Source: Escherichia coli
GTDB taxonomy: Bacteria; Pseudomonadota; Gammaproteobacteria; Enterobacterales; Enterobacteriaceae
Reading direction: 5' to 3' (one strand)
Assembly (NCBI RefSeq): GCF_013315695.1
Contig: NZ_CP054353.1
DNA: 64,000 bases
Shown here in pieces: positions 12,291-56,357 of the stretch. Below the pieces are notes generated by a model. The model saw only the letters and a list, made by a program, of their open reading frames with translations. It was not told where the DNA came from and made no database searches. Position 1 is the first letter of the stretch. Every line of letters starts with the position of its first letter. The position numbers and the translations under genes were made by a program.

Positions 12291-12601
12291 ACCCTTCTTT
12301 ACACACTTTTCATTATTCTGTGCTACCACAGAAAAACTATAACGCTTGTTAACTATTTCACAAATAATTAACATCAGCATAATTTCCAGCAATCTTCGTT
12401 TATTTGCAATTAATTTCGTTGGGCTTTTTGTAGGTTATTTGTACAGCAAAATGGCGCTTGTACATCTATTTCCCCCAATGCAGGATGATAAATATCACGG
12501 GAGAATAGAAAATCATCAATCAGGTAAGAGTCTGGAATTTCACACTGTACCCTTTATACTGCCCTATCACTTCGCGAAGTTTTAACAGGTCATAAACACG
12601 A

Positions 12602-15274
12602 ATGCGTCAGAAAGAGACAACGGCCACGACCCGCTTTTCACTCCTACCGGGGAGCATTACCCGCTTCTTTTTACTGTTGATCATTGTGTTACTGGTGACG
12701 ATGGGGGTAATGGTACAAAGCGCCGTTAACGCCTGGCTGAAAGATAAAAGTTACCAGATTGTCGACATTACCCACGCTATCCAAAAGCGAGTCGATACCT
12801 GGCGTTACGTGACCTGGCAGATCTACGACAACATTGCCGCGACAACCTCCCCCTCCTCCGGCGAAGGTTTACAAGAGACGCGCCTGAAACAGGATGTCTA
12901 CTATCTGGAGAAACCACGCCGCAAAACGGAAGCGTTAATCTTTGGCTCTCACGACAACTCAACGCTTGAGATGACTCAACGGATGTCCACTTATCTGGAT
13001 ACATTGTGGGGCGCAGAAAATGTACCGTGGTCGATGTATTACCTGAATGGTCAGGATAACAGTCTGGTGCTGATCTCAACCCTACCCCTCAAAGATCTCA
13101 CCTCCGGATTTAAAGAATCGACCGTCAGCGACATTGTTGATTCACGTCGTGCAGAGATGTTGCAACAGGCCAACGCCCTCGATGAACGCGAAAGCTTTTC
13201 TAACATGCGCCGCCTGGCCTGGCAGAACGGTCATTACTTTACCTTGCGTACTACCTTTAACCAGCCAGGACATCTGGCAACGGTCGTGGCTTTTGATCTG
13301 CCGATTAATGATTTGATCCCACCGGGTATGCCGCTGGACAGTTTCCGCCTTGAGCCAGACGCGACGGCAACGGGAAACAATGATAATGAGAAAGAAGGGA
13401 CGGATAGCGTCAGTATCCACTTTAACAGTACGAAGATTGAAATCTCCTCGGCACTCAACTCTACCGATATGCGCCTGGTCTGGCAGGTTCCTTATGGCAC
13501 CTTATTGCTGGATACGTTGCAAAACATTCTGCTGCCACTGCTGCTGAACATCGGTTTGCTGGCGCTGGCGTTATTTGGCTATACCACATTCCGCCATTTC
13601 TCCAGCCGCAGTACAGAAAGCGTCCCCAGCACGGCGGTCAATAACGAATTGCGCATTTTACGGGCAATTAATGAAGAGATAGTCTCACTGCTGCCGCTCG
13701 GCCTGCTGGTTCACGATCAGGAATCGAACCGCACAGTCATAAGTAACAAAATTGCCGATCATTTGCTGCCGCATTTGAATCTGCAAAACATCACCACCAT
13801 GGCGGAACAGCATCAGGGGATTATTCAGGCGACGATCAATAACGAGCTGTATGAGATCCGCATGTTCCGCAGCCAGGTTGCGCCGCGCACACAAATTTTC
13901 ATTATTCGCGATCAGGATCGCGAAGTGCTGGTAAACAAGAAACTCAAGCAGGCGCAGCGTCTGTATGAGAAAAACCAGCAGGGGCGGATGACCTTTATGA
14001 AAAACATTGGCGATGCGCTGAAAGAACCCGCACAGTCCCTGGCGGAGAGCGCGGCTAAACTCAACGCCCCGGAAGGCAAACAACTGGCGAATCAGGCAGA
14101 TGTGCTGGTGCGGCTGGTCGATGAAATACAGTTAGCGAACATGCTTGCGGACGATAGCTGGAAAAGTGAGACGGTGCTGTTCTCCGTGCAGGATTTAATT
14201 GATGAAGTTGTGCCTTCAGTGTTGCCTGCCATCAAGCGTAAAGGTCTGCAACTGCTGATTAACAATCATCTGAAAGCACACGATATGCGCCGCGGCGATC
14301 GCGATGCCTTACGACGTATTTTGCTGCTACTGATGCAATATGCCGTGACCTCAACGCAATTGGGAAAAATCACCCTTGAGGTTGTTCAGGATGAGTCCTC
14401 CGAAGACCGCCTGACGTTCCGCATTCTGGACACCGGAGAAGGCGTAAGCATTCATGAAATGGATAATTTGCACTTCCCGTTTATCAACCAGACCCAAAAC
14501 GATCGCTATGGCAAGGCGGACCCGCTGGCATTCTGGCTGAGCGATCAACTGGCGCGTAAACTGGGCGGTCATTTAAACATCAAAACGCGGGATGGGCTTG
14601 GTACACGCTACTCTGTGCATATCAAAATGCTCGCAGCTGACCCGGAAGTTGAAGAGGAAGAAGAGCGTTTACTGGATGATGTCTGCGTAATGGTGGATGT
14701 TACTTCGGCAGAAATTCGGAATATTGTCACTCGCCAGTTAGAAAATTGGGGTGCAACCTGTATCACACCCGATGAAAGATTAATTAGTCAAGATTATGAT
14801 ATCTTTTTAACGGATAATCCGTCTAATCTTACTGCCTCTGGCTTGCTTTTAAGCGATGATGAGTCTGGCGTACGGGAAATTGGGCCTGGTCAATTGTGCG
14901 TCAACTTCAATATGAGCAACGCTATGCAGGAAGCGGTCTTACAATTAATTGAAGTGCAACTGGCGCAGGAAGAGGTGACAGAATCGCCTCTGGGCGGAGA
15001 TGAAAATGCGCAACTCCATGCCAGCGGCTATTATGCGCTCTTTGTAGACACAGTACCGGATGATGTTAAGAGGCTGTATACTGAAGCAGCAACCAGTGAC
15101 TTTGCTGCGTTAGCCCAAACGGCTCATCGTCTTAAAGGCGTATTTGCCATGCTAAATCTGGTACCCGGCAAGCAGTTATGTGAAACGCTGGAACATCTGA
15201 TTCGTGAGAAGGATGTTCCAGGAATAGAAAAATACATCAGCGACATTGACAGTTATGTCAAGAGCTTGCTGTAG
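12602..15274 (+). CDS. rcsD: Rcs phosphorelay phosphotransferase RcsD (YojN)
   Basis: 890-aa ORF with TM segments, degenerate kinase-like domain and C-terminal HPt domain; directly upstream of rcsB. Confidence 0.9.
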   Translation: MRQKETTATTRFSLLPGSITRFFLLLIIVLLVTMGVMVQSAVNAWLKDKSYQIVDITHAIQKRVDTWRYVTWQIYDNIAATTSPSSGEGLQETRLKQDVYYLEKPRRKTEALIFGSHDNSTLEMTQRMSTYLDTLWGAENVPWSMYYLNGQDNSLVLISTLPLKDLTSGFKESTVSDIVDSRRAEMLQQANALDERESFSNMRRLAWQNGHYFTLRTTFNQPGHLATVVAFDLPINDLIPPGMPLDSFRLEPDATATGNNDNEKEGTDSVSIHFNSTKIEISSALNSTDMRLVWQVPYGTLLLDTLQNILLPLLLNIGLLALALFGYTTFRHFSSRSTESVPSTAVNNELRILRAINEEIVSLLPLGLLVHDQESNRTVISNKIADHLLPHLNLQNITTMAEQHQGIIQATINNELYEIRMFRSQVAPRTQIFIIRDQDREVLVNKKLKQAQRLYEKNQQGRMTFMKNIGDALKEPAQSLAESAAKLNAPEGKQLANQADVLVRLVDEIQLANMLADDSWKSETVLFSVQDLIDEVVPSVLPAIKRKGLQLLINNHLKAHDMRRGDRDALRRILLLLMQYAVTSTQLGKITLEVVQDESSEDRLTFRILDTGEGVSIHEMDNLHFPFINQTQNDRYGKADPLAFWLSDQLARKLGGHLNIKTRDGLGTRYSVHIKMLAADPEVEEEEERLLDDVCVMVDVTSAEIRNIVTRQLENWGATCITPDERLISQDYDIFLTDNPSNLTASGLLLSDDESGVREIGPGQLCVNFNMSNAMQEAVLQLIEVQLAQEEVTESPLGGDENAQLHASGYYALFVDTVPDDVKRLYTEAATSDFAALAQTAHRLKGVFAMLNLVPGKQLCETLEHLIREKDVPGIEKYISDIDSYVKSLL

Positions 15275-36569: not shown

Positions 36570-39197
36570 TTATTCTTCTTCTGGCTCGTCGTCAACGTCC
36601 ACTTCCGGAGCGATTTCATCGTCTCCTTCCGCGGCACTGCCATCGATGGTGTCCAGATCTTCCTCGTCAACCGGTTCAGCAACACGTTGCAGACCCACTA
36701 CGTTTTCATCTTCCGCAGTACGGATGAGGATCACGCCCTGGGTGTTACGGCCCACGATGCTGATTTCTGAAACGCGAGTACGTACCAGCGTACCGGCATC
36801 GGTGATCATCATGATCTGGTCGCAGTCATCTACCTGCACCGCGCCAACCACTAAACCGTTACGTTCGGTAACCTTGATGGAGATAACCCCTTTCGTCGCA
36901 CGCGACTTGGTTGGGTATTCCGCCACTGCGGTACGTTTACCATAACCGTTCTGCGTTGCGGTGAGGATTGCGCCATCACCACGAGGTACGATCAGAGAGA
37001 CGACTTTATCGCCTTCGCCTAAACGAATACCGCGAACACCGGTGGTGTTGCAGCCCATCGCACGGACAAAAGACTCTTTAAAGCGCACCACTTTACCTTC
37101 AGCGGAGAACAGCATTACTTCATCTTCGCCACTGGTCAGGTCAACGCCGATCAGCTCATCGCCTTCAACCAGTTTGATCGCCACTTTACCGGCGGTACGC
37201 AGACGGTTGAATTCGGTGAGGACAGTTTTCTTCACGGTACCGTTAGCGGTCGCCATGAAGACTTTCACGCCTTCTTCAAACTCGGTCACCGGCAGGATCG
37301 CAGTGATACGTTCGTCCTGCTCCAGCGGCAGCAGGTTGACGATCGGACGACCACGCGCGCCACGAGTAGCTTCTGGCAACTGGTAAACCTTCATCGAATA
37401 GACGCGACCACGGCTGGAGAAGCACAGAATATGGTCGTGCGTGTTCGCCACCAGCAGTCGGTCGATAAAGTCTTCTTCTTTAATACGTGCGGCAGATTTA
37501 CCTTTCCCGCCACGACGCTGCGCTTCATATTCCGAAAGCGGCTGATATTTAACGTAGCCCTGGTGAGAGAGCGTCACGACCACATCTTCCTGGGTGATCA
37601 GATCTTCCAGGTTGATGTCTGCGCTGTTGGCGGTGATTTCAGTACGACGTTTGTCACCGAACTGTTCACGAACCAGCTCCAGCTCTTCGCGGATCACTTC
37701 CATCAGACGATCGGCGCTACCAAGAATACGCAACAGCTCCGCGATCTGATCCAGCAGCTCTTTGTATTCGTCGAGCAGTTTTTCGTGCTCAAGGCCGGTC
37801 AGTTTCTGCAAACGCAGATCCAGAATCGCCTGAGCTTGCTGTTCGGTCAGGTAGTACAGACCATCGCGCACGCCGAACTCTGGCTCCAGCCATTCCGGAC
37901 GCGCAGCATCGTCGCCCGCACGTTCCAGCATCGCGGCAACGTTGCCCAGCTGCCACGGATTAGCAACCAGCGCGGTTTTCGCTTCTGCAGGCGTCGGCGC
38001 ATGACGGATCAGTTCGATGATCGGGTCAATGTTCGCCAGCGCCACGGCTAATGCTTCAAGGATATGAGCACGATCGCGAGCTTTACGCAGTTCGAAAATG
38101 GTACGACGGGTCACCACTTCACGGCGGTGACGAACAAACGCCGCGATGATGTCTTTCAGGTTCATGATCTTCGGCTGACCATGGTGCAATGCCACCATGT
38201 TAATACCGAAAGAAACCTGCAACTGGGTCTGGGAGTAGAGGTTGTTAAGCACAACTTCACCGACCGCATCGCGTTTCACTTCAATCACGATGCGCATACC
38301 GTCTTTGTCAGACTCATCACGCAACGCGCTGATGCCTTCCACGCGTTTTTCTTTTACCAGTTCCGCAATTTTTTCGATCAGGCGAGCTTTGTTCACCTGA
38401 TACGGAATTTCGTGGACGATAATGGTTTCACGCCCGGTTTTGGCGTCAACTTCCACTTCCGCACGGGCGCGGATATACACCTTGCCACGACCGGTACGGT
38501 AAGCTTCTTCAATACCGCGACGACCGTTAATGATTGCCGCCGTCGGGAAGTCCGGCCCCGGGATGTGTTCCATCAGCCCTTCAATGCTGATGTCTTCATC
38601 ATCGATATACGCCAGACAACCGTTGATGACTTCCGTCAGGTTGTGCGGCGGGATGTTGGTTGCCATACCTACGGCGATACCGGAAGAACCGTTCACCAGC
38701 AGGTTAGGAATTTTGGTTGGCATGACGTCCGGAATTTTTTCCGTGCCGTCATAGTTATCAACGAAATCGACCGTCTCTTTTTCGAGATCGGCCATCAGTT
38801 CATGGGCAATTTTCGCCAGACGGATTTCCGTATAACGCATTGCCGCCGCAGAGTCGCCGTCGATGGAACCGAAGTTACCCTGACCGTCTACCAGCATGTA
38901 ACGCAGCGAGAATGGCTGCGCCATACGGACGATCGTGTCATAAACCGCCGAGTCACCATGGGGATGGTATTTACCGATTACGTCACCAACGACACGGGCA
39001 GATTTTTTATAGGCTTTGTTCCAGTCATTGCCTAGTACGTTCATGGCGTAAAGTACGCGACGGTGTACCGGCTTCAGGCCATCTCGGACATCCGGCAGCG
39101 CACGGCCAACAATGACCGACATCGCATAATCCAGATAGGAGCTCTTCAGCTCTTCCTCAATGTTGACCGGTGTAATTTCTCTCGCAAGGTCGCTCAT
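36570..39197 (-). CDS. gyrA: DNA gyrase subunit A
   Basis: 875-aa ORF; active-site Tyr region and QRDR ([11 protein letters not shown]) present; acidic C-terminal tail. Confidence 0.95.
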
Positions 39198-39407
39198 CTA
39201 ACCGCTATCCCTCTACTGTATCCCGGATTCAAAGGTCGGAGATTATAACACAATCGCTTGCGGACGGGTAAACGTAATGCAGGCTTCCGGGCGCTGTAGA
39301 TCTACTGCGTTTTACCCCACCGCCAGCACACATCGCGCTGGCGGTGAACGACAAAGGAACAAAGACCGCAACACGCTTCCTGTGCCTCAATAAACACCAG
39401 AAATAAT

Positions 39408-39527
39408 GGCTATACTCGTCATACTTCAAGTTGCATGTGCTGCGTCTGCGTTCGCTCACCCCAGTCACTTACTTATGTAAGCTCCTTGGGATTCACTCGC
39501 TTGTCGCCTTCCTGCAACTCGAATTAT
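39408..39527. repeat. ERIC/IRU enterobacterial repetitive intergenic consensus element
   Basis: Contains CGCTCACCCCAGTCACTTACTTATGTAAGCTCCTTGGGATTCAC, matching both ERIC primer-site halves as I recall them, plus the flanking imperfect palindrome. Confidence 0.7.
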
Positions 39528-39547
39528 TTAGAGTATATAAATCGCCG

Positions 39548-40750
39548 TTATTTGATCACATAGGCAAGATATTGTTGTACGATTTCATCGTTTAATTCCT
39601 GACCAAGCCCAGGCAACTCTGGCGCGACATAATAGCCATTCTCGGGTTGATAATCGTAAGTACAAAGTTCCCGAATACATGCTTTCATCGCATTGGTATG
39701 ATGTTCATGAATAATAAAGTTAGGTATTGCAGTTTCCATATGCAGCGCCGCTACTGTTGAAACAGGCCCGCCACAAACATGTACCTGAACGGTTGTGTCA
39801 TATATATTGGCATAATCACAAATTTTCTTTCCCTCTGTAATGCCACCACAAAGACACAAATCAGGTTGAGCTACCGCAATTGATTGTTTTTCCAGTAAAT
39901 CACGATATCCCCAGCGAGTATAAGAACGCTCACCTGTTGCTATCGGAATCGATGTTGAACGGGCAACTTTCTGCATATTATCCGAATTTAATGGATGAAT
40001 TGGCTCCTCATAGAGAAAAATACGATATTTCTCTATTGCTTTGGCAAACTGGATCGCTGAATTTGTTCCTAGAAGAGAATGAATCTCTACAATAATATCA
40101 GCATCGTCGCCCATTGCTTCACGCATAGCGGCAATTCTTGCCTCGCCCATTTTTAATTGTTCGGCCAGTAATAAGCCAGAGTAATTTCTATTTTTGTTCT
40201 GAAAGACACAATCGCCGCCATGCAGATCGATTTCAAGCGGATCAACTTTTATCGCATTATAACCTTCTGCAATAGCGGCACGCGCTGCCTCTGCATACTC
40301 TTCAGGCGTTACTAATATTTGCCTTTTTTCGCCCCAACCAAATTGTAACTGACTGGCGTAAGTTCTCAATTTATCGTTAGTCTTTCCCCCCAGTAGTTGA
40401 TAAACCGGCACGTTTAAATATTTACCTTTAATATCCCATAAGGCAATATCAATAGCGCTCATACCTGCGTAAAAAACATTACCACCGCCCATTCCCCAAA
40501 ATGTTTTCCTGAAGAGGAATTCCCAAATCTTCTCAATGTTCAACGGATCTTCACCAATGATGAGAGGGGCTAAATCTCTGATAATACCAACACCAGATTT
40601 TGCACCTGCACCATAGGCTAATCCTACTTCGCCAACACCACTTATTCCAGCATCGGTATTAACCCGAATAAGTACTGGATTATAAGAGGCCATAGTTTGA
40701 TCTCTTTTTTTGAGTTCGCAGTCAAAAATTTCTACAGATGTAATCTTCAT
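39548..40750 (-). CDS. enolase-superfamily sugar-acid dehydratase (mandelate racemase/muconate lactonizing enzyme fold; DgoD/ManD-like)
   Basis: ORF 39548..40762; start placed at ATG 40750 (MKITSVEIF...) which has a GAGG Shine-Dalgarno 7 nt upstream; N-terminal capping domain and metal-binding barrel motifs typical of the family. Confidence 0.8.
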   Translation of the reverse strand: MKITSVEIFDCELKKRDQTMASYNPVLIRVNTDAGISGVGEVGLAYGAGAKSGVGIIRDLAPLIIGEDPLNIEKIWEFLFRKTFWGMGGGNVFYAGMSAIDIALWDIKGKYLNVPVYQLLGGKTNDKLRTYASQLQFGWGEKRQILVTPEEYAEAARAAIAEGYNAIKVDPLEIDLHGGDCVFQNKNRNYSGLLLAEQLKMGEARIAAMREAMGDDADIIVEIHSLLGTNSAIQFAKAIEKYRIFLYEEPIHPLNSDNMQKVARSTSIPIATGERSYTRWGYRDLLEKQSIAVAQPDLCLCGGITEGKKICDYANIYDTTVQVHVCGGPVSTVAALHMETAIPNFIIHEHHTNAMKACIRELCTYDYQPENGYYVAPELPGLGQELNDEIVQQYLAYVIK

Positions 40751-40762
40751 AAATAACCTCAT

Positions 40763-41998
40763 TTATTTAGCATGTGAAATAACATTGTCTTTCTGGGCGT
40801 TATCTTTTTTATTATCAATTTTCATTGATAACAAAATAGCTACGGCGATAAAGCAAAGAATCGCCTCAACAATAAATATCCCCGTGGCTCCATAATGTGT
40901 AGAAACATAGCCAAGTGATTTATTGATCAGAAAACCACCCAAACTTGAACAAGAGTTAATAAACGCAATACTGATTGCCAGGCCTGATGGTGAAAGTAAA
41001 GCTGAGGGTAAAGCCCAGTACGGACCGTAATAACTGAGAATGCCTACACCGTATAATGTTAATCCCATCATGCGCAGCGTCATCGAAGGTACAAGTGCGA
41101 TCATTAAAAAACCGCAACCTGCAACCAACATCGGTAGTGCGGCATGCCATTTCCTTTCATTCTTTTTATCGGAATGCCATCCCCATAATGGCATACTGAA
41201 CATCGCGAAAATAAACGGAATACTCATAATCAAACCGACATCGGTATCTGTGAAATCCGATGAAAATCCTTTAACCAACCCCGGTAACCAGTAATTTGCC
41301 GCCAACGCCGCTGCCTGAATAAACATATAAGCAAATGAGAGTTGTAGTAATACTGGATTTTTAATGATTGACAGAAAAGATGCATTTGTATTTTTATTTA
41401 ATGCTGCGGCTTTTTCGTTATCAGAATTAAGTTTATCGACCAATGCGGTGACTTGCGATGGTGTAAGCCAGCGGGCTTTTTCCGGACGATCTGGCAGTAA
41501 ATAAAAGGTCAGCGCCCCCAATAACACCGTAGGAATGCCTTCAATAGCAAAAAGCCAGCGCCATCCTTCATAGTTACCGGTATTCATATGTTCAATAATC
41601 CAACCAGACATTGGTGCCGCCAGCACAGATGCAACTGCGATTGATAACATAAAAAAGCTATTCACTTTTCCACGTTCGCGCGCCGGGAACCAACATGCCA
41701 GGTAGTAAACCATGCCAGGGAAAAACCCCGCTTCAAATATTCCCAAAAAGACCCGAGCGAGCAATATATGCTGGGTGTCTTTGGCAAAGAAAATTAACGT
41801 TGTTACTGTTCCCCAACCAACAATAATGGCGCTAATCCATTTTCTTGCACCTAACTTTTGCAATCCAATACTGCTCGGAGTTTGAAAAATTAAATAGGAC
41901 ACAAAAAATATTGAAGATATATTAGCAAAATCCTCTGGAGTAATACCAAGGGATTCATTCATGCGTAAAGCGGCAAACCCAATATTAACACGATCCAT
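40763..41998 (-). CDS. MFS transporter, anion:cation symporter-like (sugar-acid uptake); 5' end apparently frameshifted, see findings
   Basis: 411-aa ORF with MFS signature (DRVNIGFAA...) ; the expected first about 31 codons are in a different frame (ATG at 42090). Confidence 0.75.
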   Translation of the reverse strand: MDRVNIGFAALRMNESLGITPEDFANISSIFFVSYLIFQTPSSIGLQKLGARKWISAIIVGWGTVTTLIFFAKDTQHILLARVFLGIFEAGFFPGMVYYLACWFPARERGKVNSFFMLSIAVASVLAAPMSGWIIEHMNTGNYEGWRWLFAIEGIPTVLLGALTFYLLPDRPEKARWLTPSQVTALVDKLNSDNEKAAALNKNTNASFLSIIKNPVLLQLSFAYMFIQAAALAANYWLPGLVKGFSSDFTDTDVGLIMSIPFIFAMFSMPLWGWHSDKKNERKWHAALPMLVAGCGFLMIALVPSMTLRMMGLTLYGVGILSYYGPYWALPSALLSPSGLAISIAFINSCSSLGGFLINKSLGYVSTHYGATGIFIVEAILCFIAVAILLSMKIDNKKDNAQKDNVISHAK

Positions 41999-42180
41999 AT
42001 AGTTAAAAAATACAGAATAAATGCTAACGGAATAATCTTCCTTTTCACAATAGAAATGGCATCATACAAATCTTTCTGAGGACTGCTCATTTTGTTTCAC
42101 CTTTTGTGCTTCAATGAATAAGAGTACTACCCGAAGTGGATATTACGTAAAAAATAATCCAGTTCAAAAGGTGATGTGTT

Positions 42181-42196
42181 ATATCTGATATATCAG
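42181..42196. promoter_or_regulatory. palindromic operator-like site ATATCTGATATATCAG (copy 1) in divergent MFS/GntR promoter region
   Basis: CTGATATATCAG is a perfect palindrome; near-identical copy 70 bp downstream. Confidence 0.5.
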
Positions 42197-42250
42197 CCTG
42201 ATCATTGATTGAAACACTAACCTACAACAATAAGATACATTATTTTTGTC

Positions 42251-42266
42251 ATATCTGATATATTAG
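42251..42266. promoter_or_regulatory. operator-like site ATATCTGATATATTAG (copy 2)
   Basis: 15/16 identical to copy 1; 62 bp upstream of the GntR gene start. Confidence 0.5.
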
Positions 42267-42327
42267 ACACCTTCATTTATAAAATGATTACATATAATGG
42301 GTCAGCAGCTTAATAAGGGGCAAAGGA

Positions 42328-43026
42328 ATGAGAGATAAAGCGAAACGTGACTTAAGTCACATATCAATTGAGATACCAAAATCCGTAACCCAGGTCATCA
42401 AAGAAAAAATCAGGGATATGATAATTCATGGCGATCTCAGTCTTGGGCAACCGATAAGTGAAAATGAACTTTCGAATATTCTGGCGGTAAGTAAAACACC
42501 TATTCGTGAAGCTTTTATTTTACTTAGTCACAATGAAAATCTGATCAATATCATTCCACGCAGCGGAACATTCGTTTTTTCCGTAACAGATAAAGATATT
42601 AATGACCTCATAAAAATGCGAGTAATTCTGGAGCAGGGTGCAATTAGTGAAACAATGGAAAAGAATGCAAACAATGTCATCATTGAACTAAATAGTATAC
42701 TATCAAAATCAGCAAAAATTAATGCCGAGCGCGATACTCAGGCTTATCTTAAACTGGATCATGATTTTCATTATGTGTTTGTTAAATACGCTGATAATAA
42801 ATACATCTCTCAGGCACACCAATTGATATCCGCACGTTTACTTGCTATCCGTTATCGACTGGATTTCACTACGGAATATATCACCAATTCAAATCGTGGC
42901 CATGCGACTATTTTAGATATGCTAAAAAATAATAACGTTGAAGGTGTTTGTAATTTTATTACTCATCACGTAAGTAGTGGATTTACCGAGCGCGCACGAA
43001 AAATTCTCTCGTTATCTACACAGTAA
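42328..43026 (+). CDS. GntR-family transcriptional regulator (N-terminal wHTH, C-terminal FCD-like domain)
   Basis: 232-aa ORF with GntR HTH signature (ISENELSNILAVSKTPIREAF); strongly A/T-ending codon usage. Confidence 0.8.
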   Translation: MRDKAKRDLSHISIEIPKSVTQVIKEKIRDMIIHGDLSLGQPISENELSNILAVSKTPIREAFILLSHNENLINIIPRSGTFVFSVTDKDINDLIKMRVILEQGAISETMEKNANNVIIELNSILSKSAKINAERDTQAYLKLDHDFHYVFVKYADNKYISQAHQLISARLLAIRYRLDFTTEYITNSNRGHATILDMLKNNNVEGVCNFITHHVSSGFTERARKILSLSTQ

Positions 43027-43103
43027 AATGTGAATGAGTTTATAACACTGGCACTTTTCACCTGCTATACTGCCCGACAACCTTTATAGACTCTTATGTA
43101 ACA

Positions 43104-43826
43104 ATGAACACTGAAAATCTCCTTAAAAACAATAACGTAGACCACGAAGAGATCGCTAAATTTGAAGCCGTCGCCTCCCGCTGGTGGGATCTGGAAGGTG
43201 AGTTCAAACCGCTGCACCGTATTAACCCGCTGCGTCTGGGCTATATTGCCGAGCGTGCTGGCGGTTTATTTGGCAAAAAGGTGCTCGATGTCGGTTGTGG
43301 CGGCGGCATTCTGGCCGAGAGTATGGCGCGCGAAGGTGCGACGGTGACCGGTCTGGATATGGGCTTTGAGCCATTGCAGGTGGCAAAACTGCACGCACTG
43401 GAAAGCGGCATTCAGGTGGATTACGTGCAGGAAACCGTGGAAGAGCACGCGGCAAAACATGCCGGGCAGTATGATGTGGTGACCTGCATGGAGATGCTGG
43501 AGCACGTCCCCGATCCTCAGTCAGTGGTCAGAGCCTGTGCGCAACTGGTGAAACCGGGCGGCGATGTCTTTTTCTCGACGCTCAACCGCAACGGCAAGTC
43601 ATGGCTGATGGCGGTGGTTGGTGCTGAATATATTTTGCGCATGGTGCCTAAAGGTACACATGATGTGAAGAAGTTTATTAAACCGGCAGAATTGCTGGGC
43701 TGGGTGGATCAGACCAGTCTTAAAGAACGGCATATGACCGGGCTGCATTACAACCCTATAACTAATTCCTTTAAGCTCGGCCCCGGCGTTGATGTGAACT
43801 ATATGCTGCACACGCAGAATAAGTGA
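43104..43826 (+). CDS. ubiG: bifunctional 3-demethylubiquinone / 2-polyprenyl-6-hydroxyphenol O-methyltransferase
   Basis: 240-aa ORF with SAM-binding motif (VLDVGCGGG) matching UbiG. Confidence 0.9.
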
Positions 43827-43965: not shown

Positions 43966-46900
43966 TTACCATTTCACTGTCATCGACAAAAACCCTGCCG
44001 TCTGGGCAAAATCATCACTCCCTTTCTGCCACGCCACGCTACCACGCAGCGAAACTCGCTGACTGATATTGCCCGTTATTCCCACTTTTATTTCACCCCG
44101 TTGCTTCGCCGCATCGTCACTGATAGTGCTGCCATCTTCTTCAATTCCCGTCGAATGGGGATCGTGATAATAATTCAGATCTAACGTTGGCGTGACACCA
44201 ACAGCAGTACGCCATTCGCTGTGTAAACCCAGCCGCGTTTGAATATCATCACCCTGCGATTGTGACACGCGCGCATGGTTAGCGGCGGTAAAATCATCCT
44301 GCTGCACGCCCTGATAAATCACCTGCGTCTGCGGTTCAATCACCACACCATGCCCCGGTAACCACTGATAACCGGCTTCCAGCGAGGCGATAATCCCCGA
44401 CGAGTGGTAATGATCCACGCCATCGTCTTGTTCGGAAACATCATTGTTAAACCACACATATTGCAGCCAGCTATCCAACCAGGCCCCCTGCTTCTGATTA
44501 CCGTGCTGATACCAGCTTGAGGTCAGCCCAACGGCATAACCGTGGTTCTGGTTATCGGCGCGAGTTCCGGTCATATTCGAGCGGCTGTCGCCCTGGTTAT
44601 CGCTGTAGCCACCAACAATCCCAAGCATCCACTCGCCATCATCACCCCAGTGCCCGCTAAACAGGTTGCCGCTAAGCTGCACCGTAGAAGTGTCTTCATG
44701 CTGAGCCAACTGCCCTACCGCCGTGTAATGATAACGCCCGCCGATAACGCGTAAATTCAGCGTCTGACCATCGCCACCAGCGTGATCGCGTCGCTCCATC
44801 ACAAATGCCTGATTTGCCGCCCGCAGGTTATTAAAATATCCACCAACTTTGGCATTCAACACCGGCTGGTAGGCAGGCGTAGGTTCCGGGTCGGGGGTTG
44901 GGTCGGGATCCGGCGTGGGATCAGGATCTGGAGTCGGGTCCGGATCGGGCGGCGGCGTCGGATTGACTTCTTGCGATCGCAGATACCAGTCGTTGTTATC
45001 TTCCACCAGCGTATAGTCATACGCCCCCATATTGACGTAGCCGCTGCCCGCCAGACTGAACTGCGCATTGTTTTGAAATTGCGTTGGATCGGCTGCGAAA
45101 TCAACCACTTTAATGCCTGTAGATGTCGGCTCACCAATACCCGTAATGGGATTAATTACCACGGTCGTGTTGCCAGCAGTATTACCGTTCAACACCAGTT
45201 GGTCGCTTGCCGAGTCATCGCCGTTTAATTCGCTGTCGAGAAACAACGTACCGCCACCGGTGTAATCACCGTTTACCGTGAGCGTGTCGCCAGCGACGCC
45301 ATTTTGCAGACTGACAGCACCGGAAGTATTAGTTAGATCACCATTGACCGTCACGTCTGAAAGATAAGTCAGGCTGTCAGTTTCAAGGTTGGTATTAAGC
45401 TCGCCTGTCAGCGTCACACCATCGGTGGCATTCACCAACGTACCGTCGCCGCTAAACAGCGAGGCATCCAGCGCCTGGTTCGTATCCTGCTGCGTCAATC
45501 GCAACACAGTACCATCGGTTATGTCGATATCGCCGCCAGAGGTGGCATCGATTGAACGAATATCCTGATTTTGCCCGGTTTCAAAAACACCGTCTTCCCC
45601 CACCCACAGTGAAGAAACATAAGGAATAATATTCTCCGCTTCACCTTTTAGCGTTCCGTCCTCCACACGTACCGCAGACGTCGCAGTGCCGCTGGCGGTC
45701 AACTCAAGCGTCCCGCCGCCACTTTTAGTCAACGTGCTTACGCTATCCAGTTGTTGCCCGGTACTATCCGCCATCAACCCGCCCCATTGCGTATCTACAC
45801 CATCCTCAACGTGTATTTCGCCATCAGCGCGCATTTCAATATTCCTGCCCTGACCTGTTGTAGCCGAGCGAATGTCAACATCAGTCGTCACATCCATTTC
45901 ACTGTGTTGTTGGGGATCTGTGAAGATCACTGAACGGTTGTAACTTGTGTCCCCCAATTGCGAATTATCGCTGACTTCAAGCGTACCGGAGGCGATTTGC
46001 GTATTACCGAGATAACCGTTGTTATTCGCCAGCGTTACGCGCTGATCCCCCGCATTAATGACGACATAAACGCCATTCTGGCTGGCATCACTGCCGCCAA
46101 TATGTAAATCATCGCCACTGCTGATATCAACGACATCATTACTACCAATCACTGTCCCCCCGCTGCCGCTGATTTGCAGACCGTCATTGTATGAGCTATC
46201 GCCATCCCAGGTGGTGAAATCAGAGAGATCCAATACTCCGCTATTTAGCACGATCGATTGCGGATCGCTCTGCATTGCCCGTAAATCGGCCTGATTCCCC
46301 GCTAGCGACAATACGGCGTTATCTTCCACCACAATATCGCCGGTTAATGCCATCGACTGCGCCCCTGTCAGGAGATAGCTGCCATCTTGCGCTACCGTCA
46401 ACTGTCCTTCACCCTGAATCGAGCCGGAAAAACCGCCCTGGTTTACTGTAACATTGCCGCCTGCGTCGATATTCAAAATGCCATTAGCAAAACCGGTTAA
46501 TGAGTGCACAAACGTTTGTTGTGTATTGCCAACATTCAGTTCTGCCTGATACTCAGAATGAACAGTGCTGCCGACCATCAAACCAAAGCAATCCTGCGGA
46601 TCGCTCTGACAGTGCGTGTCGCCGACATTCATTAACTCATCGCTGCGCCCCAACGTCACCTCGCCATTCTGGATACTCATCTCGCCGGTAAACGCATTAT
46701 TGTCGGCATTGAGGACTAACTCTCCCGCTCCCTCTTTCACGATGACTCCCGTTCCGGCAAGAGAATCAATCGCGCCATCGTTGCTGGTATTGCCTATTAC
46801 CAGCGTTTTATCGGCGGCAATATTAAATTCAGCCACACTATGACCGATATACATAAAGCCCCCCGCCGCTGCCGTCGCCGAATGGTCATATCCCGAGGCG

Positions 46901-47724
46901 CTGTTATTTTCATCAATCATCACACCATTGTTTTGGTCATAATTATCATCAACAGAAATATCAATAAGATACGGGGATGTGGTGCTGCTGGTATAAATTG
47001 CTCCGCCATAACCTTCTGCATAGTTATTGGTAAAGGAGGTATTATTAATTATCGTTTTTCCTGAAAGATGTGTGTTATCCGTACTATTATCCGTAACATC
47101 AATGGCACCGCCGTCCCCATCACTATAGCTGGTTGATGTATATGCCTGATTATTATCAAAAATGACATCACTTAAATAAATATCATTATTGATAGAATAA
47201 ATAGCGCCACCTTTACCATCATTGGCGATATTATTCGCAAATATTGCATTAGTGATATTTAAATCCATATCACCGGCATCGTTTGTTCCCGCAGAATAGA
47301 TTGCTCCGCCATAGCCTCCTGCAACGTTACTGTCGAAAATAACATTCGCAAGATTTATCGTTGAGTTTTCTTTAGCAAAGATAGCTCCGCCATTATTATA
47401 TTCGCCACTAATCGAGTTATTAGCAAACAGGGTCATCCCTGTTTCATTTTGTGGTGATATCGTAAATTCAGCACTTTGCTGCAAAAATACGGCGCCACCG
47501 CTGGCATTATTGGCCATACCCGAAAAAATCACCCATTGCCCATCGGCGATGCTCCAGTCCTGCGTAATGCCTGAAAGGCTTTGCCTGCTGGCCTGACAAC
47601 TCGCTTTGATATCATATCCCTGGCATGAATCCAAAACCTCCGCGACACTGTTAACAGAGAAAAGAGATGCAATCATTGACGGGAGTAAAGATAAATACTC
47701 CTTGCGTAGAAAAATAATCCGCAT
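43966..47724 (-). CDS. yfaL: AIDA-like autotransporter adhesin YfaL (EhaC) with passenger beta-helix, Pro/Thr/Asp-rich linker and C-terminal beta-barrel
   Basis: 1252-aa ORF; signal peptide; linker PTPPPDPDPTPDPDPTPDPDPTPDPEPTP; C-terminal barrel ending in aromatic residue (KW). Confidence 0.85.
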   Translation of the reverse strand: MRIIFLRKEYLSLLPSMIASLFSVNSVAEVLDSCQGYDIKASCQASRQSLSGITQDWSIADGQWVIFSGMANNASGGAVFLQQSAEFTISPQNETGMTLFANNSISGEYNNGGAIFAKENSTINLANVIFDSNVAGGYGGAIYSAGTNDAGDMDLNITNAIFANNIANDGKGGAIYSINNDIYLSDVIFDNNQAYTSTSYSDGDGGAIDVTDNSTDNTHLSGKTIINNTSFTNNYAEGYGGAIYTSSTTSPYLIDISVDDNYDQNNGVMIDENNSASGYDHSATAAAGGFMYIGHSVAEFNIAADKTLVIGNTSNDGAIDSLAGTGVIVKEGAGELVLNADNNAFTGEMSIQNGEVTLGRSDELMNVGDTHCQSDPQDCFGLMVGSTVHSEYQAELNVGNTQQTFVHSLTGFANGILNIDAGGNVTVNQGGFSGSIQGEGQLTVAQDGSYLLTGAQSMALTGDIVVEDNAVLSLAGNQADLRAMQSDPQSIVLNSGVLDLSDFTTWDGDSSYNDGLQISGSGGTVIGSNDVVDISSGDDLHIGGSDASQNGVYVVINAGDQRVTLANNNGYLGNTQIASGTLEVSDNSQLGDTSYNRSVIFTDPQQHSEMDVTTDVDIRSATTGQGRNIEMRADGEIHVEDGVDTQWGGLMADSTGQQLDSVSTLTKSGGGTLELTASGTATSAVRVEDGTLKGEAENIIPYVSSLWVGEDGVFETGQNQDIRSIDATSGGDIDITDGTVLRLTQQDTNQALDASLFSGDGTLVNATDGVTLTGELNTNLETDSLTYLSDVTVNGDLTNTSGAVSLQNGVAGDTLTVNGDYTGGGTLFLDSELNGDDSASDQLVLNGNTAGNTTVVINPITGIGEPTSTGIKVVDFAADPTQFQNNAQFSLAGSGYVNMGAYDYTLVEDNNDWYLRSQEVNPTPPPDPDPTPDPDPTPDPDPTPDPEPTPAYQPVLNAKVGGYFNNLRAANQAFVMERRDHAGGDGQTLNLRVIGGRYHYTAVGQLAQHEDTSTVQLSGNLFSGHWGDDGEWMLGIVGGYSDNQGDSRSNMTGTRADNQNHGYAVGLTSSWYQHGNQKQGAWLDSWLQYVWFNNDVSEQDDGVDHYHSSGIIASLEAGYQWLPGHGVVIEPQTQVIYQGVQQDDFTAANHARVSQSQGDDIQTRLGLHSEWRTAVGVTPTLDLNYYHDPHSTGIEEDGSTISDDAAKQRGEIKVGITGNISQRVSLRGSVAWQKGSDDFAQTAGFLSMTVKW

Positions 47725-48257
47725 ATTAATCTGACCATCATGTTCTATAAGACGGCATATTTAATCGCATTATACGATATGGGTTATTTTTCTTTTGTAA
47801 ATTGTTCAACCCGGTGCAATGGCTATTTTGTTATTATTTCATGAATAATATCAGTGCGTCATAATTCAAGTTAATCACCTTAAGGGATATCAGTTATGTT
47901 TAAACTGAATTAAAGTAATGAATAATTTTCTTATAATATAAGGTAAATTAACAAAATGGCTTCGCATTTAACAACAACCGAAGAGAAAACAACCATTTCG
48001 ACATCAACAATCGCTTACATTCGCTTATATATTGACCATAACTGATACATCAGATTATGTGATGACTCGTGCTTAGATCAATTTTTGCAATCATTAGCCA
48101 AAAGATTAATAAACCATCTATATCAATTTATCTAACCTATTCTTCCGTTCAAGAAATCGCCGAACAGTTATTTTTAACAAATTTTTCTCTTCCCATTGAC
48201 TTTCCCGGACACCTTGTCTGACCTAAGGTGCGCGAAAGCCACTTTTTCCTTCCTGAG

Positions 48258-53019: not shown

Positions 53020-54210
53020 TTAATGAATTTCTTTTGCCACTACTAGCGCGACACCGCTTTTGCCCTTCATTTGCAGCGCATAGACTCCACCAGCCACTAC
53101 CACTAATAGTGCACCCAGCAGATAAATCATTCGGTAGCCAGTATGTGCAACCATCATCCCCATCACACAGGCTCCCAGCGCCAGGCCTGCATCCATCGCA
53201 TTGAAGAAGAGGGAGTTTGCGACACCGATTTTATGCGGTTCCACTGAACTGATAATCTGCGTCTGAAAAACTGGCGTCACGGAACCATACCCGATACCAA
53301 TCAATGCGCCAGAAACAACCATCATTATGCTTCCCTGGGTGTAGCCGAGAACCACCAGTCCTACCGTAAAGAACACAAGGCAAGGGTAAACCACATATTT
53401 CGGTCCTTTTTTGTCGCAGACATTGCCGGTAAAGGTACGGCAGATCATCAGGAAGATAGCGTAGCAAAGCAGGAAATTACTGGCTGCCGACATCAGGTTA
53501 AGTTCGCGTGCATAAAGCGCCAGAAAAGCAGAAACCCCGGCATACGAAAAGGTCATAAAAAAGGTGACCATCGCAAATGGCAACGCCGCGCGATCGAACA
53601 TGGCGGCGAAGCCCATTTTCGGCGTTGAACCATCAGCATGGCTGATAACCGGCGGCACTGTCATAATCAGCGACAGAATAATCCCCACCGCTGCCACGCC
53701 GGTGCATAACCAGAAAGCCATATTAAAGGCCTCCCAGCGCGCCATATTCAGGCCAATCCACGGCCCGACCACCATTGCCAGCCCCATTGCCAGAGAGAAA
53801 AAACTGATGCCCTCCCCACGTCGGGAGGCCGGGATCAGCCGCGCGGAAATCGTTCCTTTTACCGTAGTGATAACCCCGAAGGTAATACCATGAAGCACCC
53901 GAATAAAAAGCAGTGATTCAATTGAGTGGCAAAAAGGATACAGCGCAGTGACCACCAAGAAGGCCAGAGAAGAGAGCCCCAGAATAGTTTTATTCGAGTA
54001 TTTGCCCACCCATTGCCCGGCAAAGGGGCGAATAACAATGGCGGCAATTAAAAATAAAGTCACCAACAAACCTGCTTTATCAGGAGAGGCATGCAAGCGG
54101 TCTGAGATATAAATTGGCAACAATGTTAGTAAAACATAAAAGACGAAGAAAATAATAAAGCTGATGATGGTTATTGCCCAAAAATCCTTCGTCCATAACT
54201 TCTCTTTCAT
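53020..54210 (-). CDS. MFS transporter (12-TM efflux-type)
   Basis: 396-aa hydrophobic ORF with MFS loop motifs; divergent from LysR regulator. Confidence 0.75.
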   Translation of the reverse strand: MKEKLWTKDFWAITIISFIIFFVFYVLLTLLPIYISDRLHASPDKAGLLVTLFLIAAIVIRPFAGQWVGKYSNKTILGLSSLAFLVVTALYPFCHSIESLLFIRVLHGITFGVITTVKGTISARLIPASRRGEGISFFSLAMGLAMVVGPWIGLNMARWEAFNMAFWLCTGVAAVGIILSLIMTVPPVISHADGSTPKMGFAAMFDRAALPFAMVTFFMTFSYAGVSAFLALYARELNLMSAASNFLLCYAIFLMICRTFTGNVCDKKGPKYVVYPCLVFFTVGLVVLGYTQGSIMMVVSGALIGIGYGSVTPVFQTQIISSVEPHKIGVANSLFFNAMDAGLALGACVMGMMVAHTGYRMIYLLGALLVVVAGGVYALQMKGKSGVALVVAKEIH

Positions 54211-54325
54211 ACCCTACCGCCTGTCAGGATGACGCACGCAGACAACACTCCCGTTACTGCGGTTGCGTCAAATTGTGATGTACTTTGCAGAACAGAAGTA
54301 TAAATGGCGGCATGCTATTAGAGAA

Positions 54326-54340
54326 ATTAATCGTTTTAAT
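54326..54340. promoter_or_regulatory. LysR-type T-N11-A box ATTAATCGTTTTAAT in divergent promoter
   Basis: Inverted half sites ATTAA/TTAAT with 5-bp spacer, 22 bp upstream of the LysR gene. Confidence 0.45.
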
Positions 54341-54361
54341 ATTATTGATTAGCAAACTCTA

Positions 54362-55261
54362 ATGACTCTTACCCAAATAAATTCTTTACTCGCCGTGCTG
54401 GATTACGGTGGCTTTACTGAAGCCAGCAAGCGATTGTTCATGACGCAGTCGGCGGTAAGTCAGGCAATTGCTGCCCTCGAACAAGAACTTGGCGTGAATA
54501 TACTGTTACGCGATCGCCGTAAAGCTATACAACTGACCTCTGCAGGTCACCGCATTATGCATCATCTGCGCGCCATTAATCGGGAAGTGAACGCAGTAAA
54601 AGAGATAGCCGAGCAGGAAAAGCAGAACCCTCAAAGAACGCTGAGACTTGGTTGTTTCCCCAGCGTCTGCGCCTGTATCTTACCGGCTGTGATTCGCTAC
54701 TTTGAAATTCATCATCCGAATATAAAAATTATTCCTTTTGAGGAAAATAGCACAGCGATTATTGATTCCCTTCAGAATGAATCCATTGATGCCGGTTTTG
54801 TTCATTTTCCGGTGAGCGGAATGTACTCCGTGCCCATTTATCAGGATAAATTCACCGTAGTGTTACCGCCCAACCATGCTCTGGCAAAAAACAGCACTAT
54901 TACAGTGGAAGAGTTAATGGGTGAACCATTAATTATTAGTAAAGGACGCTATGAATTAAGCATTATGGCACTATTTAAAGAAAAGAATATTACCCCACAG
55001 ATAAAATATGAATTTAATCACCCGGATACAGCGATCAGTTTTATTCGACAGGGATTAGGCATCGCCTTATTACCAGAGTTAACGCTGAAAACCATTGCAG
55101 ATGAATTGTGTTCCGTTCCTCTCGAACCAACCTTCTATCGACAGATTTCGTTGCTGGCTAAAGAAAAGCCGGTAGAAGGCAGTCCACTGTTTTTACTACA
55201 AATGTGCACAGAACAATTAGTGGAGAGTGGAAAATTTGATATGAGACAGGATGGCGCATGA
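54362..55261 (+). CDS. LysR-family transcriptional regulator, full length
   Basis: 299-aa ORF with N-terminal HTH (TEASKRLFMTQSAVSQAI); corresponds to the locus I recall as the yfaH remnant in K-12. Confidence 0.75.
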   Translation: MTLTQINSLLAVLDYGGFTEASKRLFMTQSAVSQAIAALEQELGVNILLRDRRKAIQLTSAGHRIMHHLRAINREVNAVKEIAEQEKQNPQRTLRLGCFPSVCACILPAVIRYFEIHHPNIKIIPFEENSTAIIDSLQNESIDAGFVHFPVSGMYSVPIYQDKFTVVLPPNHALAKNSTITVEELMGEPLIISKGRYELSIMALFKEKNITPQIKYEFNHPDTAISFIRQGLGIALLPELTLKTIADELCSVPLEPTFYRQISLLAKEKPVEGSPLFLLQMCTEQLVESGKFDMRQDGA

Positions 55262-55280
55262 ACGCCATCCTGCAGTAGCA

Positions 55281-56357
55281 TTACTCTTTATTAAGGAATT
55301 TTACTGCCTTATCAGGGAAATCAGTAAACAGCCCATTTACACCCGCTTTGTTATACAGAGCATCATATAACTGATTCACATCAGTAGTGTATTCAGGCAG
55401 CTTATCTGACCGCACGGTGTAAGGATGCACTACCAGTTTATTCTGCTGAGCATCTTGCACCATGCCAGTGAGTTTGATATTACCTGGCTGCGATGTCTCC
55501 TCAATCAACATATGGTAATCCGGACCAATACCATCAGCATATTCCGCCACCTGTTTCATGGCCCCCGGCTTAAACATCCAGTCGTAGTTGTAATTAACCC
55601 AGCTTCCGTCCGGCTGTTTCTGCTGAGTTTCGTTCCAGTCGGTATAGGCAATCAGCTGTACCAGATTGAGGTCCATGCCCATTTTAGGTTCCAGCTCATT
55701 CTTAATACGCTTCAGTTCATCGGCATCAAAACATTGCAAATAAACTTTGTCGTCCTTACCGGTGTAACCATATTTCTTCAGCACTTCCAGCGTTTTTGCC
55801 GCAATATCCTTCCCTTCCTGATGATGGAACCACGGCGCTTTAATCTCCGGGTAGATACCAATATTTTTCCCGGTAGAGTGATTTAACCCCTGAACAAATT
55901 CAATCTCTTCTTCAAAGGTGTGCACCCGGAAGTCGGACTTACCCATTGGGAAACGCCCCGGATAAGTCTGTACTTTCTTACCGTTTTCAATATCGAAACC
56001 TTCGGTAAATTTCAGTGACTTAATTTCATCGAGCGTGAAATCTATCGCGTAGTAACGACCGTCTTTGCGCGCCCGATCCGGGAAACGATCGGCAACATCA
56101 GTAACACGATCGAGATAATGGTCATGCAGAACAACCAGATGGTCGTCTTTGGTCATCACCAAATCCTGTTCCAGATAATCCGCTCCCTGCGCATACGCCA
56201 TCGCTTTTGCTGGCAGCGTATGCTCCGGCAAATATCCACTGGCACCGCGATGGGCGATGACTATTTTTTCGTTGCTGTCCGCCGCCATTGCACTGCTTCC
56301 CATGATCATTCCACTCATCATGATCGCCATGCTAAGGTTTTTCAGCGTCAATTTCAT
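55281..56357 (-). CDS. glpQ: periplasmic glycerophosphodiester phosphodiesterase
   Basis: ORF 55281..56414; start placed at ATG 56357 (MKLTLKNLSMA... signal peptide) with GGAGG 8 nt upstream. Confidence 0.9.
   Translation of the reverse strand: MKLTLKNLSMAIMMSGMIMGSSAMAADSNEKIVIAHRGASGYLPEHTLPAKAMAYAQGADYLEQDLVMTKDDHLVVLHDHYLDRVTDVADRFPDRARKDGRYYAIDFTLDEIKSLKFTEGFDIENGKKVQTYPGRFPMGKSDFRVHTFEEEIEFVQGLNHSTGKNIGIYPEIKAPWFHHQEGKDIAAKTLEVLKKYGYTGKDDKVYLQCFDADELKRIKNELEPKMGMDLNLVQLIAYTDWNETQQKQPDGSWVNYNYDWMFKPGAMKQVAEYADGIGPDYHMLIEETSQPGNIKLTGMVQDAQQNKLVVHPYTVRSDKLPEYTTDVNQLYDALYNKAGVNGLFTDFPDKAVKFLNKE

Follow-up and report, generated by a model that had tools for sequence, protein, structure and literature searches.

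The region between gyrA and ubiG is occupied by a module of three genes in the stretch of Escherichia coli DNA analysed here, a window of 64,000 nucleotides from contig NZ_CP054353.1 (NCBI RefSeq assembly GCF_013315695.1). This trio consists of the genes for a dehydratase of the enolase superfamily and a transporter of the major facilitator superfamily (MFS), both in the same orientation, and a divergent gene for a regulator of the GntR family. Gene content and orientation, as given in a preliminary description made from the sequence alone, agree with the list of open reading frames (ORFs) and with RefSeq annotation. The same description had given a short intergenic region for K-12, and indeed the distance from start to start of gyrA and ubiG is 3,906 bp here versus 146 bp in K-12 MG1655. 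We consider it likely that the trio is an old catabolic module of foreign composition, here in its E. coli copy, and that its present pattern arose by loss in a species whose ancestors had it in common with Salmonella, rather than by a recent gain.

The evidence for this comes first of all from Salmonella, where the same three genes are found at the same gyrA-ubiG site in the same order and orientation. The exact sequence of PDB entry 4E6M occurs in assemblies with the order nrdA-ubiG-GntR-MFS-dehydratase-gyrA-rcsC, and the index of the assembly collection lists it in 33,100 blocks; the members of the 4E6M-type protein cluster are named Salmonella enterica. The Salmonella orthologues are presumably STM2273 (dehydratase), STM2274 (MFS) and STM2275 (GntR) of strain LT2. 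Amino acid identity is 92% for the dehydratase (with 4E6M and 2GL5, both entered as 'putative dehydratase protein', E ~1e-259), 89% for the MFS protein and 87% for the regulator. Both operator palindromes described below are identical, a repeat of the enterobacterial repetitive intergenic consensus (ERIC) type is located at the same position, and the locus is AT-rich in both genera (GC content 0.42 there, 0.40 here). The nucleotide identity between E. coli and Salmonella is 0.859 for gyrA, 0.824 for the dehydratase gene, 0.788 for the MFS gene and 0.787 for ubiG. The corresponding synonymous divergence (dS, Nei-Gojobori) amounts to 0.65 for gyrA, 1.46 for the dehydratase, 2.14 for the MFS and 2.29 for the GntR gene and 3.05 for ubiG; that of the trio is saturated, as in ubiG. 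The ratio of nonsynonymous to synonymous divergence (dN/dS) is about 0.03 for all three trio genes. The two genera differ in frequency, the trio being very widespread in Salmonella but present in only 2.6% of the complete E. coli genomes, and in detail, since the MFS gene of the window is frameshifted and 2 bp differ upstream of the regulator start.

Among 5,426 complete E. coli genomes, the 3.5-kb core of the trio was found in 141, always chromosomal and in single copy. The pangenome check suggested in the preliminary description thus returned a patchy distribution, with 140 genomes at a coverage of at least 80%; in these 140 RefSeq genomes the trio is already annotated. The K-12-type junction was present at a coverage of at least 80% in 5,284 genomes. 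The locus is essentially two-state: 97.4% of the genomes have the same uniform empty allele and 2.6% the filled one. Identity to the window was at least 99% in 120 carriers and 98.3-98.8% in 21 others. The carriers stem from humans, poultry, dogs, cattle, pigs and water and include IAI39, SMS-3-5 and CE10, which we take to be phylogroup F strains. A more divergent filled allele is found in bovine isolates, e. g. UTAK-1, whose gyrA is K-12-like. Between the window and UTAK-1 the island is 95-100% identical per 250 bp, similar to the flanks, and the ratio of nonsynonymous to synonymous polymorphism (pN/pS) of the trio within E. coli is 0.10-0.18. Two carriers have independently damaged copies: in strain TH9F11 (NZ_CP054191.1) an insertion of IS5, an insertion sequence (IS), splits the dehydratase gene, and in NZ_OZ546943.1 an IS1-associated truncation has left only 24% of the island.

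In annotation, ORF list and repeat search, neither mobility genes (integrase, IS element) nor a tRNA gene nor border or terminal repeats were found at the island. The gene was also absent from enterobacterial plasmids, apart from three Salmonella records of about 500 kb, which were taken as chromosome pieces, and a 55%-identical paralogue. The horizontally acquired cassette proposed in the preliminary description consequently lacks the usual signs of such an origin, i. e. mobility genes, a tRNA or attachment (att) site and border repeats; its foreign composition stands, whereas a recent gain specific to E. coli is not supported, as the same trio resides at the Salmonella gyrA-ubiG site. The synteny with Salmonella, the ubiG-like divergence, the lack of mobility genes and repeats and the single uniform empty site together favour an old acquisition, at or before the split of Escherichia and Salmonella, which was followed by loss in most E. 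coli.

The foreign composition itself is pronounced. The island (39253-43126) has a GC content of 0.396 compared with 0.515 in the remainder of the window. Per 500 bp, GC is 0.33-0.43 over 39.5-43.0 kb and 0.50-0.57 in gyrA and ubiG, and at third codon positions (GC3) it is 0.32 in the dehydratase, 0.37 in the MFS and 0.30 in the GntR gene versus 0.59 in gyrA and 0.61 in ubiG. The AT-richness relative to the flanks that had been read from codon usage is therefore real, and the trio region is the longest low-GC run within the window.

The two ends of the island bear on how it came to be present in a minority of strains. In a BLAST search with the K-12 junction, the 99% identity to K-12 sets in abruptly on both sides, at 39252 and from 43127. 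The location given in the preliminary description (39408-43103) was right, its borders were not: the segment without a clean K-12 counterpart extends from about 39253 to about 43126, that is, from about 155 bp left of 39408 to 23 nt inside ubiG. Over 80 aligned bases at the ubiG-side junction, the window is 51% identical to K-12 and 68% identical to Salmonella, and K-12 and Salmonella are 59% identical to each other. The first eight codons of ubiG and the ubiG promoter region differ sharply between filled and empty E. coli alleles. UbiG begins with MNAEKSPVNHN in K-12 and with MNTEKPSVAHN in Salmonella, and the window allele is different again. Because promoter region and first codons have diverged, the N-terminus of UbiG differs between the allele classes, and expression of ubiG is predicted to differ as well. 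A promoter-like site for ubiG (ATAACA-18-TATACT) lies at 43042-43071, and its -10 match is conserved across three alleles. In scans for intrinsic terminators and promoters the counts were not above shuffled expectation, and only this -10 match was used.

A possible interpretation of these borders is import by homologous recombination, in which the E. coli ancestor lacked the trio and a few lineages took over the gyrA-ubiG segment from a divergent Escherichia- or Salmonella-like relative, with crossovers near 39253 and 43127. The abrupt switch to K-12 identity on both sides would be expected from such an event, and so would the junction-proximal sequence including the start of ubiG, in which the two E. 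coli alleles are as diverged from each other as either is from Salmonella. The island is also found on different flank backgrounds, the gyrA of UTAK-1 being K-12-like and that of the window not. Yet a donor closer than Salmonella was not found, as the next relatives are 87% (at another locus) and 78% identical at the amino acid level. Moreover, the allelic diversity of 1-5% per 250 bp inside E. coli implies long residence, and elevated divergence beside an old indel is also expected from long-term linkage. We therefore regard import as a minor possibility and loss of an old resident as the likely course.

The transporter gene of the window is a pseudogene. Its coding strand reads TATTTTTTAAC where the intact alleles of SMS-3-5, IAI39 and UTAK-1 read TATTTTTTTAAC, i. 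e. one base has been deleted in a homopolymer, turning T7 of the coding strand into T6 (A6 at 42005-42010 on the + strand). The frame shifts at codon 29 and reaches a stop after 43 codons, so that MSSPQKDLYDAISIVKRKIIPLAFILYFLTIWIVLILGLPLYA is followed by the stop instead of the protein continuing as ILYFFNYMDRVNIGFAAL. The ORF of 411 amino acids at 40763-41998 is the out-of-frame downstream remainder of the gene for 442 amino acids and starts from Met32, inside the first transmembrane segment. The preliminary description had correctly given an MFS transporter in the orientation of the dehydratase but had missed the frameshift. Because the deletion truncates the transporter after 43 codons, the trio in this strain is probably inactive for uptake. 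The T6 allele is carried by 6 of 139 carriers and T7 by the other 133. In host-restricted Salmonella Gallinarum 9184, the MFS gene orthologous to STM2274 appears among the pseudogenes given by a study on AT homopolymer strings (PMC8538453), a parallel to the slip from T7 to T6 in the window. The intact allele matches Pfam MFS_1 at 1.6e-52. Its best NCBIfam models are HpaX (270.7 bits) and TIGR00893, the D-galactonate transporter model of the anion:cation symporter (ACS) subfamily (269.7 bits compared with a cut-off of 395), and both scores are below cut-off; one UniRef entry labels the protein 'L-rhamnonate transporter'.

Such lesions raise the question whether the trio is a decaying relic without function in E. 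coli. Apart from the frameshifted MFS gene in the window and five other genomes, the IS5 in the TH9F11 dehydratase gene, the IS1-associated truncation and the pseudogene in Salmonella Gallinarum (PMC8538453) point in this direction, as does the RefSeq annotation (Prokaryotic Genome Annotation Pipeline, PGAP), which flags the regulator as 'frameshifted' in all four carriers examined (NZ_OZ547117.1, NC_010498.1, NC_011750.1 and NZ_CP157165.1). The flag was dropped as a sign of decay, however. Salmonella shares the ATG at 42328 and the reading frame that follows it, both Pfam domains are present in full (GntR, PF00392, residues 22-83, model positions 3-64 of 64; FCD, PF07729, residues 93-216, model positions 1-124 of 125), and with 87% identity to the Salmonella protein and a dN/dS of 0.029 the regulator is under purifying selection. 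The orthologue in one homologous trio (locus L034) was called at 231 amino acids. Probably the flag is an error that the annotation makes systematically, because the reference protein has an upstream start and hence an over-long N-terminus, and the divergent GntR regulator of the preliminary description appears to be a complete gene. As the intact T7 allele prevails among the carriers and the low pN/pS within E. coli and dN/dS relative to Salmonella indicate constraint, a functionless relic is unlikely.

The MFS and GntR genes are separated by a divergent control region with two palindromes, ATATCTGATATATCAG (42181-42196) and ATATCTGATATATTAG (42251-42266), which are 70 bp apart and represent a 16-nt element around TCTGATATATCAGA (direct-repeat family D1). 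They are the sole two matches in the 64 kb, where 0 would be expected by chance. Both are perfectly conserved in Salmonella, although the surrounding intergenic sequence has diverged. Near-identical palindromes are located upstream of the first structural gene in the homologous trios L034, L036 (Caballeronia), L037 (Morganella) and L038 (Enterobacter); L034 has two sites, which are 70 bp apart as in the window, and the palindrome of L038 is an exact copy. This comparison is good evidence that the palindromes are the operators of the FCD-type GntR protein. The related regulators DgoR, ExuR/UxuR and LldR are repressors that are released by the acid substrate or product, and by analogy the trio regulator would be one as well.

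The dehydratase gene is intact, and its product is identical to WP_001571680.1 of IAI39 and SMS-3-5. The Pfam domains MR_MLE_N (residues 19-121, 2.4e-22) and MR_MLE_C (residues 152-389, 1.5e-58) make up the two-domain architecture of a capping domain and a modified TIM barrel. Residues D183, H185, E209, E235, D258, H285 and E310 of DgoD align with E222, H224, E248, E274, D297, H324 and E349. The predicted catalytic set hence comprises E222, E248 and E274 as Mg2+ ligands on barrel strands 3, 4 and 5, H224 as the general acid, the base dyad D297-H324 (strands 6 and 7) and E349; the first metal ligand is a Glu, which in DgoD is an Asp. The KxK motif at the end of strand 2 is lacking, with K168-V-D170 in its place. 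DgoD is also without the second Lys (K-L-N), and the missing residue would fit a DgoD-like rather than a mandelate racemase (MR)/GlucD-like active site.

For the curated NCBIfam dehydratase models all scores were below cut-off: 249.3 bits compared with 311 for DgoD (NF010624), 203.5 compared with 550 for ManD (NF043051), 239.1 compared with 750 for gluconate/galactonate dehydratase (NF040790) and 125.7 compared with 393 for L-rhamnonate dehydratase (NF011968). These profiles place the enzyme outside the equivalog families of DgoD, ManD, RhmD and gluconate/galactonate dehydratase, and the view of the preliminary description that the substrate is not assignable from sequence holds. The enzyme is the orthologue of a structurally solved Salmonella protein of unassigned function. 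Among the candidates scored, its family accounts for 4,654 clusters at E<=1e-60 and spans Proteobacteria, Firmicutes, Chloroflexi, Actinobacteria and fungi. In the 90% protein clustering, the dehydratase and the adjacent MFS protein fall into one cluster of 7,802 members, presumably from fused or read-through gene calls. Because the representative of this merged cluster is an MFS protein, the homology search with the dehydratase did not return the cluster to which the query belongs.

Literature searches on STM2273-STM2275, 2GL5, 4E6M, Q8ZNH1, Salmonella acid-sugar screens and fungal D-galactonate dehydratases returned incidental mentions only and no functional study. Two papers name STM2274, an MFS transporter, and STM2275, a regulator, in passing; the mention in PMC8538453 concerns the Gallinarum pseudogene and that in PMC3293720 a predicted small RNA target.

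Homologous trios were found in other genomes as well. Another enterobacterium (L041, 5233-8696, and L042; Logan assemblies) has the trio with the same internal arrangement in a yhjD-yhjC/treF-like region, with 87% identity of the dehydratase and 72% of the regulator. Budvicia and Caballeronia carry homologues with 62-78% identity, and so do Morganella, where an integrase is adjacent, and Enterobacter, where IS fragments lie on either side. All of these loci consist of regulator, MFS protein and dehydratase only, and in the context of at least 25 homologous loci no conserved aldolase, kinase or dehydrogenase was found in the proteobacterial trios. Homologues from Coriobacteriia (52% identity) are located beside a phosphotransferase system IIC component, a 2-hydroxyacid dehydrogenase, a class II aldolase and two alcohol dehydrogenases, and those from Clostridia, Synergistaceae and Dehalococcoidia beside tripartite ATP-independent periplasmic (TRAP) transporters, which also carry carboxylates. 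A transfer of the substrate from these four groups was dropped since their contexts are too distant and too varied. The search with the regulator returned E. coli and Salmonella clusters, the 72% cluster of the yhjD-yhjC enterobacterium and a 59% cluster from Salmonella. A scan of genome contigs for the dehydratase returned no Salmonella or other Escherichia, but this peptide-pattern scan was non-exhaustive and missed even the known Salmonella copy.

By type, the locus belongs with the ordinary inducible cassettes for the use of acid sugars, such as dgoRKADT or rhmRDTA. Starting from the gene identities and domains, the conserved catalytic residues and operators, the synteny and the purifying selection, all of which are observed, it would be expected to work as follows. 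The FCD-type GntR protein would repress the divergent promoters through the two palindromic operators of the TCTGATATATCAGA type, 70 bp apart, and an acid-sugar effector, either substrate or product, would relieve this repression. The MFS permease would import the organic anion together with protons. In the Mg2+-dependent dehydratase, the His324-Asp297 dyad would take the proton alpha to the carboxylate, and His224 as the acid would expel the beta-hydroxyl in the manner of DgoD, giving a 2-keto-3-deoxy acid. In DgoD, the C2 proton is abstracted by the His-Asp dyad and the 3-OH is lost with the assistance of a His. The product could then be processed by unlinked housekeeping kinases and aldolases, e. 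g. KdgK/Eda, DgoK/DgoA or enzymes of the YagE/YjhH type. By analogy, our best guess for the substrate is an aldonate with a D-galactonate/D-gluconate-like configuration at C2 and C3.

Alternatively, the substrate could be a small hydroxy acid, such as a tartrate isomer or glycerate, that is dehydrated directly to a central metabolite (oxaloacetate or pyruvate). This would account for the finding that in unrelated genomes the module always consists of a regulator, an organic-anion transporter (MFS or TRAP) and the dehydratase without a conserved aldolase or kinase, and a D-tartrate dehydratase does exist in the enolase superfamily. However, D-tartrate dehydratase uses the second lysine of the KxK motif, which is lacking in the DgoD-like catalytic set of the trio enzyme (K168-V-D170). 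In the profile comparison the enzyme comes closest to galactonate, gluconate and mannonate dehydratases, and the hosts' unlinked pathways for 2-keto-3-deoxygluconate (KDG) and 2-keto-3-deoxygalactonate (KDGal) could take up a 2-keto-3-deoxy product. A small hydroxy acid is thus quite unlikely, and an aldonate remains the preferred candidate. More tentatively, and with considerable doubt, the dehydratase may represent an uncharacterised family of the enolase superfamily that forms, with the permease and the FCD regulator, a self-sufficient and widely transferred minimal catabolic trio for a substrate outside the known acid-sugar pathways. If so, its product may enter central metabolism directly or via housekeeping enzymes, and the conserved TCTGATATATCAGA operator would be a handle for finding the inducer.

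Finally, that the trio was recently acquired by a subset of E. coli, as an AT-rich cassette inserted in phylogroup F-like lineages, is very unlikely: although its composition (GC 0.40 versus 0.515, GC3 0.30-0.37 versus about 0.60), its restriction to 2.6% of the genomes, and the integrase (Morganella), IS fragments (Enterobacter) and different locus (in the other enterobacterium) of homologous trios would agree with this, Salmonella has the same site, gene order and orientation, the saturated, ubiG-like synonymous divergence leaves no recent donor in view, the diversity of the island within E. coli is as large as that of the flanks, and mobility genes, att-like repeats, target duplications and copies on enterobacterial plasmids are missing.

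Several points nevertheless weigh against an old catabolic module shared with Salmonella and lost from most E. coli. The low GC content (0.40 in E. coli, 0.42 in Salmonella) without amelioration is unusual for a very old resident. The 51% identity at the ubiG-side junction is not explained by a simple clean deletion and would fit an imported allele. Gain and loss are not polarised by the comparison, which covered E. coli and Salmonella, and the 87%-identical trio at the yhjD-yhjC region shows that the module moves, albeit over long time scales. As to the catabolic role, no curated NCBIfam dehydratase equivalog was reached, and no experiment or paper tying the trio genes to any substrate was found in the literature searches.

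The features of the locus are compiled in the table.

Features of the gyrA-ubiG region in the window. Gene coordinates follow the ORF list and RefSeq annotation of isolate AF3, whose sequence matches the window at 100% in this region.
Feature	Position	Strand	Basis or remark
gyrA	36570-39197	-	ORF list and RefSeq annotation
gyrA-side spacer	39198-39410		39198-39252 common to K-12 (gyrA upstream region); 39253-39410 in the island allele only
ERIC repeat (intergenic repeat unit, IRU)	39411-39545		ends two bases before the dehydratase stop codon
Enolase-superfamily dehydratase (mandelate racemase/muconate lactonizing enzyme, MR/MLE), 400 amino acids, intact	39548-40750	-	Pfam, PDB, RefSeq WP_001571680.1
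MFS transporter pseudogene (organic-anion type, ACS-like)	40763-42090	-	RefSeq 'frameshifted' flag and allele alignment
Divergent control region between MFS and GntR genes, 237 bp	42091-42327		two operator-like palindromes
GntR regulator, FadR/FCD subfamily, 232 amino acids, apparently intact	42328-43026	+	Pfam, conserved frame
GntR-ubiG spacer and first 23 nt of ubiG	43027-43126	+	ubiG promoter-like site; diverged from the K-12 allele
ubiG	43104-43826	+	ORF list and RefSeq annotation

The ERIC repeat at the gyrA-side junction had been recognised in the preliminary description, and both its copy number and its sequence bear this out. Across 5,425 E. coli genomes the segment 39411-39545 has matches at 33,935 places, and at 39453-39496 primer ERIC2 is matched exactly and ERIC1R with one mismatch. 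Among the carriers the repeat is polymorphic: it is absent in UTAK-1, measures about 127 bp in the window and in IAI39, and is larger in SMS-3-5, where it contains two internal insertions. It is thus a secondary, polymorphic insertion. In an alignment of carriers, K-12 and Salmonella, an ERIC is located at the corresponding position in Salmonella; to our knowledge, ERICs at matching positions in both genera are uncommon. The Rfam match of the repeat to V_AS5 (39415-39538) is sub-threshold, with 47 bits compared with 96. The gyrA-side spacer contains a perfect 10-bp inverted repeat, CACCGCCAGC...GCTGGCGGTG, at 39317-39346, which the four aligned E. coli carriers all share and K-12 and Salmonella lack. 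This stem has no T-tract and is not an obvious intrinsic terminator.

Elsewhere in the window, low GC (0.37-0.43) was observed at 46750-48000, in the 5' part of yfaL (N-terminal passenger) and upstream of it, and further dips of 1-2 kb are located at 12001-13000 (0.41) and 54001-56000 (0.43-0.44). PADLOC returned zero matches to anti-phage defence systems at the locus, and a role in anti-phage defence was dropped for this reason.

Part of this was known before: the locus is annotated in RefSeq, and the structures 2GL5 and 4E6M of the Salmonella orthologue, which the preliminary description had missed, are available. New are the synteny with Salmonella together with a divergence like that of core genes, the division of the population into two states, the frameshift and how often it occurs, the reinstatement of the regulator ORF and, finally, a pair of conserved operators and a catalytic set resembling that of DgoD. 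Current concepts are unchanged by these results, as this is a routine accessory catabolic locus, partly inactivated in this strain, which illustrates the loss of an ancestral nutrient-use module rather than a gain. For E. coli, it provides a clean two-state marker beside gyrA that separates a minority of lineages. Identification of the substrate would give a function both to a dehydratase family of thousands of members and to genes found very widely in Salmonella, for which a crystal structure has existed since the mid-2000s.

Among the characterised systems, dgoRKADT resembles the trio in having a GntR/FCD regulator, an MFS transporter of the anion:cation symporter type and an enolase-superfamily dehydratase, and the catalytic pattern of DgoD (metal ligands, His acid on strand 3, His-Asp base) recurs in the trio enzyme. 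However, identity is only 32% between the dehydratase and DgoD and 24% between the transporter and DgoT, the trio has no linked kinase or aldolase, and its dehydratase, which scores below the DgoD cut-off, carries about 25 extra residues after strand 2 besides the Glu in place of Asp as the first metal ligand. The rhmRDTA (yfaXWVU) system for L-rhamnonate, located about 20 kb away in K-12, likewise combines an acid-sugar dehydratase, an ACS-type MFS transporter and a regulator, and among the K-12 paralogues compared the trio transporter is closest to YfaV (32%). Yet the dehydratase is only 28% identical to RhmD, the regulator is of a different family, and a linked aldolase is lacking in the trio. 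ManD/RspA is similar in length and fold, and PDB entries of ManD match at 130-160 bits; the trio enzyme nevertheless scores below the ManD cut-off and is about equally distant from ManD and DgoD.

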